A DNA stretch of 64,000 nucleotides from Lama guanicoe. Its lineage: Eukaryota. The notes under the pieces are model-generated. The model was not told where the DNA came from. It ran no database searches and was given only the letters and a program-made list of their open reading frames with translations. A program made the translations under genes and the position numbers. Positions 23,701 through 26,700 of this stretch are shown one piece after another. The DNA is taken from assembly GCA_013239625.1 (NCBI GenBank), contig MU053933.1, forward strand, positions 248,001 through 312,000, read 5' to 3'. Positions within the stretch are counted from its first letter, which is position 1. The number at the start of each line of letters is the position of its first letter.

Positions 23701-26700
23701 CCCGCTGTGATGTGTCTTCCTAACACAGCGAGTACTTTGTGAAACAATCACTTAATAAGCTTTTCACCTCTTTCTTGTCTTCTCTACTTGCACAGAGACA
23801 CAGGGAGACTGTCCAGGGAAGTTTAAACCACTCTTCCTGAGCCTATTATGTGAAGGCTGCTTCCCTGAATTCTCCTCTTTAATTCTGAGAAAGAACAAGG
23901 ATTTCTTCTCACTGTCACAGAAGGAAGACTGGGCGAGAGTAGACGGCAGAAAGAAAAACTGCCCAGGGGCCAGTAAGGGGGGTAGGGAGGGGACTGGCTA
24001 GTATCTGAGCACCACATCCGGTCCTCACAGGGGAGACCCCCCAGGAACCCGCTGCTGCTGGGTGCTTCCCGCAGAGGCCGTGCTAGGAGCGGCAGGACGT
24101 GGCCTTGTGGGGACTGTCCACCCGAGAAAGTGGGTCTAAGGTCCTTCCAAACTCAACTGAGGCTACTGTAATGTCAGAGAATCTTTAGCCATGGCCTGGA
24201 AACCTGCATGCCCGTCCACAGGTGATGGGGGAGCGGACGGTGGGACACCCACACAGTGGACAACGCTGCTCGGCAGCAAAGGAGGAGGAGCAGCGGGGAA
24301 CCTGACGTGGATGAGTCTCCCCACGTGCTGTGAGCAAGACGCTGGGCACAGAAGGAGTGTCGGGATGGGGATGCCAGTCCACGCCGAGACAGGCAAGAAA
24401 GTGGCCAGGGAGACGGAAGTGTTCTCTGTCCTGATAACTGGTCACAGCGGTGGACCCACTTGTCAAAGCTCACAGCCTGCACGCTCCGCAGTGCCAACTG
24501 CACTGCATGTAGGTTGTTCTCGAAAGAGCTGATTCAGAGGAGAGACGGGCTTCGATTCTTTCTCCACATGGGCTCTCTGTTCTGAGTTTTTCTGCCTTGC
24601 AGGGAGGCAACCCGGCCTGGGGTCCTTCCCCACTCCTGTTACTCCTCCCCCAGGACCACCCTCACCCGATGGCTCCTCCCCCAGGACCACCCCTACCTGC
24701 TAGCTCCTCCCCTGGGACCACCCTCACCTGATAGCTCCTCCCCCAGGTCCATCCCTATCTGCTGACTCCTCCCCTTGGTCCAGCCTCACCTGCTGGCTCC
24801 TCCCCCAGGTCCATCCCCATCTGCTGACTCCTCCCCTTGGTCCAGCCTCACCTGCTGGCTCCTTGCCTTCCACAATGACTAGAGGCTGCTCCGGTTTGGA
24901 TGCTTTGGGTTTTCTTCCCCTTCGAGGCTTTTTCTTCTGCTCTTTGGTGGTACCCACACTCTTGGGAAGGGAGGGAGGCTCCCCCCGGGGCGCGTCGGCT
25001 TCCTTCTCGGGAGCCGGCTCCTGCTGGCCAGCTGGGGGGGCGCTTTTGGCTTGTTCCAAGTGGCCCAACAGGTGCTCTGCACGACAGGGGCGCAAAAGCA
25101 TAAGGCGGGGTGTCCACTGCTGACTCCCACTTTGTTCTTAATTTTATTTGCTAATAGTGTGCCTCCTGCAGAGGCAAATGAACTTTATTTCCGCTTTTGA
25201 AAACAAAAGCATTTCCAATACACCAAACACAACCGCCACTTTAAAAAGTCAGTCACGTGGTGGGAGGAGGGCAGGTGTGTAAAACTGCGCACACAGTCTG
25301 TAAAAACTGAAAGCACACACGTGTGCGGAGAAACTGTGAAAGAACGTATCGAAACAGTAACGTGGTTCTCTCTAGATGGTGACCTTGTGGGCAATTTTTA
25401 TGTTCTTCTTAAAGCTTGTTTAAATTTTCTTATTTTTCTAGAATGAATACATAATATAATTACTTAAAACTGTAGCCTCTCAAGAGCATTAATAAATGTT
25501 TAATTCATGATGAACACAGTTGTTCTTAAAAACATTGCACGAGGGGAAAAAAGAAGAAAAAAGGAGATTAAAAAAAAAACACTGCATGAAAGCAAGAAAA
25601 CTTTGCTTTATTTTCAAGGGAAGAAAAGCTCAGAGACCTCCCAAGAAAAGATAACTGAGCAAAACACAGGAAGCAGACGGGCGGGGGTGGCCACGCCCCC
25701 CAAGTGAAGGTGGGCAGGGCTCAGGCCAGCGGGGTGGCCGACATCTGCAAGAGGAAGCGGGACCCACGAGACAGGTGCGGACTAACGCCCTCAAGTGACC
25801 GCAGGTGCCTGTATGACTCGGCCAAGGACTAGTTCTTCCCATCACCAACCTCAACTACAGGCCACAAAACCAGAGACACTCCCCCTCCCCTACAAACTAT
25901 AAGACGCGGCTGAGCTTCAGAGAAAGCAAACGAGGTCCCTCTGTGGGAGACAGACGTGCAGAGAAGCTTCAGGTCAAAGCCCAGAAGTGCGAGCTGACAG
26001 AGGCCCAAGGAGGAGACACAGGCTGGGGAGCAGAGCCGCTCGGGTAAAGCCAGGGAACTCCCAAGGGCCGTGTGTCCTACCACTGTCCAAAGGGATGGCG
26101 AGGGCGGGCCAGCACCGTCGAGGTGAGCTCAGCACAGGACTTGCTACCATAGGGCTGCCCCGGCCCATCGTGTCCCTTACCATTCAACAGCTGCAGCTCG
26201 AGGAAGGTGGCGGAACACACCTTACACACCCACTGGCTGGGCTCCGACTCGGCCGGGGCGCTGTTTTCCGGGGTGCCTGCAGCTTCAGAAGATAAGACGA
26301 GATGGTGGAGGTGGAAGAAGACAGTCCCTGGCAGCTCCTGCCTCCGTGAAGCCCAGCCCAGCAGAGCCTGCACCTGCTCCCATGGGAGGTGACAGTGACA
26401 GCAGTAGCAGCAGCCACCACTCCTGAGCAGCTTCAAGGCTGCAGGGTGGGATCGTGGAGTTTTACACACACGGACACGTTTGTGCTCGTGAACATCCCTG
26501 TTTCACAGATGAGGAAACTGGCCACACAGCACTGTCACCAGTCACAGAAATGTGGCCTCCTCCCATGAGCCGGTCCAGGGGCACCAGACGCACCCCCTCA
26601 TACAACATTGAGAAGAAACGCATCCTACAGCCCAAGTCGAATCCCCTAGTCGCTCAGCGGCTCAGGCAACGAGAAAGGGCAGAACCTGAAACAGCTGGGC

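Follow-up and report, generated by a model that had tools for sequence, protein, structure and literature searches.

Several human genes carry minisatellites whose first unit lies across an exon/intron border, F7, CBS, 6-16, LMNB2, and PDGF being described together in this respect (PMC1557585). In F7 intron 7 (IVS7), a 37-bp VNTR of 5–9 units supplies downstream pseudo-donors identical to the authentic donor; these pseudo-sites are reported to be functional yet unused, and the authentic first site is the one used (PMC1557585). LMNB2 and PDGF likewise use the first site only, and CBS and 6-16 are the only members of this set reported to use pseudo-sites, namely two besides the authentic one (PMC1557585). 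The human CBS VNTR at exon 13/intron 13, c.1444_1467+7(16_21), has junction-spanning 31-bp units, and a link between repeat number and enzyme dose has been proposed for it (PMC2630376; PMC1395315). The 25-bp VNTR of human ABCA7 intron 18 contains a donor GT in its unit, and retention of one unit is reported to cause a frameshift, a premature stop, and NMD (PMC5954066), which is the mechanism that a preliminary description of the present locus had put forward. In TP53 intron 6, G-runs lie between the true donor and a strong cryptic site approximately 62 nt downstream (c.672+63), and removal of these G-runs is reported to lead to use of the cryptic +63 donor (bioRxiv 10.1101/2024.10.07.617118). 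Splicing-associated tandem repeats have also been catalogued genome-wide in humans (PMC10078293). Among the PRDM15 papers listed for splicing and for tandem repeats, none named the array described below in its title or abstract opening, and supplementary repeat catalogues could include it. This layout has precedents in several human genes, and the PRDM15 array is a further case of it.

The window, that is, the whole stretch of 64,000 nucleotides of Lama guanicoe analysed here, contains PRDM15 on its minus strand according to tblastn searches with the whale, pig, human, and lynx proteins. Vicugna pacos RefSeq isoform X1 (P0095) matched exons 6–8 with 100% identity, EPA|EQVAE being joined at 24852/23203. 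This confirms the assignment to PRDM15 exon 7 made in the preliminary description. Exons are numbered as coding exons of the Vicugna pacos RefSeq X1 model, in which the exon in question is the seventh. The gene features concerned are as follows.

24852 to 25076, minus strand: PRDM15 coding exon 7, 225 nt, ending ...KEPA + G (tblastn with P0095, 100% identity, residues 326–400)
23204 to 24851, minus strand: intron 7, 1648 nt, phase 1
23083 to 23203, minus strand: PRDM15 coding exon 8, 121 nt, acceptor ...TTTATGCAG|A (tblastn with P0095, 100% identity, residues 400–441)

The array starts 12 nt inside coding exon 7 and places six further copies of the junction in intron 7, each unit consisting of about 12 nt of exon end (AGGAGCCAGCAG-like) and 19 nt of intron start. 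The array and the junction copies are listed below with the first intron base of each.

24642 to 24863, minus strand: minisatellite of 7.2 units of 31 bp, 222 bp in total, the first unit taking in the last 12 nt of exon 7
24846 to 24854, minus strand: authentic 5′ splice site, CAG|GTGAGG, first intron base 24851, placed by the homolog junction EPA|EQVAE, no G-run in −40 to −4
24815 to 24823, minus strand: copy +31, dead, CAG|ATGGGG, first intron base 24820
24784 to 24792, minus strand: copy +62, same as the authentic donor (CAG|GTGAGG), first intron base 24789, frame shift if used
24753 to 24761, minus strand: copy +93, dead, CAG|ATAGGG, first intron base 24758, the sole in-frame and stop-free offset
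24722 to 24730, minus strand: copy +124, identical 9-mer (CAG|GTGAGG), first intron base 24727, contains the in-frame TGA at 24726–24724
24691 to 24699, minus strand: copy +155, CAG|GTAGGG, first intron base 24696
24660 to 24668, minus strand: copy +186, weaker, CGG|GTGAGG, first intron base 24665, −3 position variable in DNA run X19

TRF described 24642–24863 with a period of 31 (7.2 copies, score 260) and with a period of 62 (3.6 copies, score 313, 90% matches), and the 62-bp dimer is the better-scoring description of the array. TRF and the junction sequences agree with the preliminary description in that a 31-bp repeat begins inside exon 7, the authentic donor is at 24852, and an identical copy lies 62 nt into the intron; its coordinates give the last base before the junction and agree with the first intron bases quoted here. 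It had also stated that every unit carries a copy of the junction. The copies were indeed present, but GT was kept in only four of the six extra ones. Units 0 and 2 matched at 31/31 positions and units 1 and 3 at 30/31, while the remaining pairs matched at 21–27 of 31; therefore, the identical +62 copy and the second dead copy stem from one recent 62-bp duplication. Judged from this unit likeness, the 62-bp duplication is recent and sits on an older, diverged array. A search of the animal's own genome with the array, simple repeats being skipped, returned a single matching place. The authentic 9-mer occurred five times on the minus strand of the 64-kb window, three of them inside the array. 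Of the 17 other PRDM15 donors, none had an identical 9-mer within 250 nt, and one had a decoy with 7 of 9 consensus positions; 18 donors including that of exon 7 were located, the donor of one exon was not, and donor strength was the count of matches to the U1-complementary consensus.

The locus shares with F7 IVS7, CBS IVS13, LMNB2, and PDGF a first unit lying across the authentic exon/intron border, here fixed by homologs, and a donor reiterated downstream, here as the identical 9-mer at +62 and +124 and as GT at +155 and +186. It differs from the reported F7 repeat in having 12 nt of exon per unit rather than 4 (PMC1557585), and in units that are diverged, organised as dimers, rich in G-runs, partly dead as donors, and seemingly common to laurasiatherian orders. 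In ABCA7, allele length runs from hundreds of bases up to about 10 kb, and changes in splicing were measured (PMC5954066), whereas the PRDM15 array comprises 222 bp, the copy closest to the authentic donor being dead. TP53 is unlike PRDM15 in having no repeat, a weak authentic donor, and minigene tests (bioRxiv 10.1101/2024.10.07.617118). CBS has 15–21 units with 24 nt of exon each, and both pseudo-site use and an association with activity have been reported for it, in contrast to PRDM15. Like the PRDM15 array, the CBS repeat has a substitution in its second unit, which in CBS is reported to limit alternative splicing. The equal 31-bp length of the CBS and PRDM15 units is taken as a coincidence, lengths and not sequences having been compared.

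An independent DNA run (X19) provided a 188-base contig over 24638–24825 with three substitutions and no gap, and a second contig of 126 bases over 24638–24763 with five substitutions. These two overlapping contigs differ within the array, so that one sample may carry divergent array haplotypes. Units 4–6 are also present in RNA-library contigs from a relative with 43 differences over 1203 intron bases (about 4% divergence). The differences listed include positions +11, +14, and +15 of the +62 copy, whose 9-mer was unchanged, position −2 of the +124 copy, where one X19 contig and the relative (X1) both show A>G, and position −3 of the +186 copy. No change in unit number was seen in camelids, the one DNA run (X19) showing substitutions only and no indel. 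The array is real and variable in sequence. That the array or the identical +62 dimer is an artefact is hardly credible: the assembly is fragmented into 55,231 contigs, and neither X19 contig reaches across the full array, the longer of the two stopping at 24825, but the gapless X19 contig, the units found in the diverged relative, the mutual divergence of the units (21–31 of 31), and related copies in other mammals all speak against it. An assembly artefact had been named in the preliminary description as a finding that would undo its proposal; the X19 DNA contig largely refutes it. The RNA-library contigs X1–X3 of the same relative cover most of intron 7 (23180–24745) at a depth of 2–7, where DNA, pre-mRNA, and retained intron are indistinguishable.

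To follow the array across mammals, open reading frames in the protein collection that continue past exon 7 into intronic sequence were placed by comparing their exon part with the nearest named protein, and their intronic tails were scored against the three frames of the array with 300 shuffles. Tails resembling the array were of pig type (z 3.0–10.3, five ORFs), horse type (10.2 and 11.3), baleen-whale type (5.1), toothed-whale type (3.2–5.1, four ORFs), Myotis type (3.5, one ORF), and Rhinolophus-like type (3.9, one ORF). Ruminant-type tails had z of 2.9–5.9 in 19 of 20 cases, one short cattle type (P0130) scoring 1.3. The resembling tails show peptide traces of the exon end within the intron. 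By the same scoring, human-, rodent-, and manatee-type tails had no similarity to the array; similarity was not significant for the pangolin types P0028 and P0155, the Pteropus type P0033, P0143, and P0084; and tails of carnivore type, which end at five residues, were too short to score. A toothed-whale origin of the +63 read-through ORFs was ruled out, their nearest match being Sus (71–72 of 72 residues). A metagenome search for orthologous DNA gave one candidate (L002) with 58% identity over 18 residues, which was not an ortholog.

Unit number also varied by type, with seven units in the camelid window, about two in the baleen-whale type, 3–5 in the pig type (types with about 3, 4, and 5), and at least four in the horse type, while cattle types differ by 30-nt steps at the peptide level. 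The donor offsets were +62 in the camelid, and, deduced from read-through peptides, +63 in pig, +21 in dolphin, and +32/+62 in horse. In the horse type, Gln-Val fixes CAR|GT. In the ruminant types, the first copy encodes Ala-Ser-Leu or a similar peptide, which rules out CAG|GT; AGGT is absent. These peptide-level comparisons suggest that the junction was duplicated long ago in laurasiatherians and that the repeat has since been tolerated with neither spacing nor frame conserved; pigs, whales, horses, and bats are likely to have the array in common with the camelid. The exon-end residues are conserved to rodents and platypus with no visible repeat there; therefore, the repeat would have been derived from the junction and not the reverse, which bears out the earlier proposal that the array was seeded from the exon 7 splice site. 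The origin may have been one slippage duplication of about 12 exonic and 19 intronic bases in an early laurasiatherian, after which units would have been gained, lost, and homogenised lineage by lineage. The early laurasiatherian radiation dates to about 75–80 million years ago.

In silico splicing to exon 8 gave a stop at nucleotide 19 of exon 8 from +62, a stop at nucleotide 101 of exon 8 from +124, and a stop at the in-frame TGA 24726–24724 from +155 or +186. The only in-frame and stop-free offset was +93, which lacks GT. Thus, the frame arithmetic of the preliminary description, its TGA, and a stop after every live copy all stood, except that the TGA assigned there to +186 is met by +155 as well. 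By the standard exon-junction rule, a premature stop far upstream of the last junction leads to NMD. Since at least 11 coding exons follow, NMD is expected for the products of the live downstream copies.

We then considered which donor is used. Contigs from four of 24 listed runs (RNA runs X1–X3 and DNA run X19) over 23152–24905 contained no joints, but the end of exon 7 was uncovered in all four, so that the lack of joints carries no weight. Among 141 anchored spliced-type PRDM15 proteins, including three camelid models and many proteins from species without the array, 136 showed a direct exon 7–exon 8 junction (131 by pattern and five ruminant proteins with EQVTE). None of the five others had repeat-derived sequence joined to exon 8, read-through words were found in no long PRDM15 protein, and inspection of 29 long proteins without the anchor, outside the tally of 141, revealed no repeat insert; products destined for NMD would not appear in protein databases, and homology guides the gene models in part. 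All annotated camelid proteins that span the exon 7 junction use the first donor. EPAGEAG recurs without a stop in read-through ORFs of pig type (at +63) and of dolphin type (at +21), the GT of these in-frame copies being read from a peptide in which the G codon is ambiguous. Despite the apparently in-frame copy, the first donor was used in 3/3 pig models with exon 7 and in 17/17 anchored toothed-whale models. An in-frame copy would escape NMD, yet these models use the first donor, which favours the first donor. Additionally, a Mustela lutreola isoform (P0207) lacks the last five residues of exon 7, indicating that annotation does record minor donors at this junction. Taken together, the models favour the first donor as the site used, the camelid case being indirect.

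One alternative, in line with the preliminary description, is that the array leaks, +62 and less often +124/+155 taking a measurable share of splicing that ends in NMD, with the number or the sequence of the units modulating PRDM15 dose. Strong duplicated donors at least 45 nt apart are reported to make reporters splice almost wholly to the downstream site (PMC3413131). The +62 copy is identical and lies beyond this distance, and it therefore needs a reason to be ignored, which counts against silent copies; so do the use of pseudo-sites in CBS and 6-16 and the unit retention in ABCA7, which serve as precedents for leakage. The premature stops after all live copies, the X19 alleles differing at donor positions −2 and −3, and the pig-type ORFs differing by whole units fit such leakage as well. 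On the other hand, pig and dolphin proteins contain no insert despite their in-frame copy, frames are not conserved between lineages, no length polymorphism was seen in the camelid data, and G-runs stand ahead of every copy. We therefore regard a measurable leak of this kind as unlikely, and dosage regulation appears less likely than silence of the copies. A conserved poison or AS-NMD switch was likewise not found at the peptide level: the offsets (+62, +63, +21, and +32/+62) and frames differ by lineage and the ruminant first copies are dead, which speaks against a poison outcome kept across species.

The extra copies are probably near-silent pseudo-sites, the first donor being used almost exclusively with little effect on PRDM15 dose. 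In such a case, U1 would encounter the authentic site before any of the copies; this site follows a purine-rich exon end without G-runs, and the first-site preference would be as in F7 IVS7. The G4–G5 runs present in every unit may then act in two ways, hnRNP F/H binding downstream of the true donor enhancing it and binding upstream of each copy silencing that copy. A run of at least four G was found in −40 to −4 of 6/6 copies compared to 0/18 authentic PRDM15 donors. However, the density of G-runs after the exon 7 donor (12 in 200 nt) is matched in introns 9 and 10 (13 and 14), which counts against the G-run explanation, and the F7 authors are reported to have excluded auxiliary intronic elements in their system (PMC1557585), which speaks against the G-run step being required. 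No stable fold masking the copies was found by RNA folding (z +1.06; 171 of 200 shuffles fold as well). It is likely that first-come selection and G-run action work jointly, with at most a small NMD-bound leak; any rare use of +62, +124, +155, or +186 would end in NMD. A minor leak as in CBS and ABCA7 is possible by analogy.

The G-runs could instead be what selection maintains, the array serving as a G-run/G-quadruplex intronic enhancer of exon 7 or as a brake on intron 7 removal, and the donor copies being passengers that tend to mutate away. Its persistence in camelid, pig, whale, ruminant, horse, and two bat types would agree with this, as would the mean G4Hunter score of the intron 7 start (1.13), the highest of 18 intron starts, the dead +31 and +93 copies, and the loss of AGGT in ruminant-type units. 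Nevertheless, this is very unlikely: human-, rodent-, and manatee-type sequences do not have the array, the number of units varies freely, the top-scoring 25-nt G4Hunter window (1.8) is unexceptional beside 2.28 and 2.8 in other introns, the hairpin fold is not unusual, and the two AT copies trace to one duplicated event, hence they are no independent evidence of purging. We also considered, as a quite improbable reading, that since early laurasiatherians the array has been a splicing rheostat variable by lineage and allele, expanded independently in camelids, pigs, ruminants, and horses, with the G-runs and the level of hnRNP F/H setting the share of +62. Were this so, use of the +62 site would lead to NMD in camelids and horse and to a 21-residue insert in pig.

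If the copies are near-silent as we propose, the apparent age of the array and its variation across species would still give it modest value as a comparative test system. Unit number, spacing, frame, and dead copies differ across livestock with much RNA-seq, providing a natural comparative series that could separate first-come scanning (the F7 model), G-run silencing, and the downstream-site rule. Should the copies leak, the alleles of the repeat would amount to a hidden splicing QTL in a transcription factor of development. PRDM15 mutation is reported to cause Galloway-Mowat syndrome in people (PMC12177991).

Other features were noted at the exon 7 junction and elsewhere in the gene. On the minus strand, 24861–24869 (AAG|GCAAGG) forms a candidate GC donor that lies 15 nt ahead of the authentic one and whose use would drop five residues in frame; the five residues at the exon 7 end are absent from Mustela lutreola RefSeq isoform X2 (P0207) and from the Sorex model P0082. 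At the same junction, Tamandua tetradactyla P0100 has a 7-residue insert, its donor apparently lying 21 nt further on, and Cnephaeus nilssonii P0038 has an 11-residue insert. In the Myotis brandtii model P0001, the last ~45 residues of exon 7 are tandemly duplicated, which is either real or an assembly error. The Vicugna RefSeq X1 model has an extra upstream coding exon at 51116–50985 and a longer N-terminus. GC-rich repeats with 21/28/49-bp periods lie beside the exon at 42952–42746, regions 42670–43255 and 50985–51116 being flagged. The intron preceding the exon at 15780 contains a perfect (CGCATCA)7 at 16023–16072, and a second intronic minisatellite (15440–15583; 19/37/56-bp periods) begins about 25–32 nt after the donor at 15608, which it does not include.
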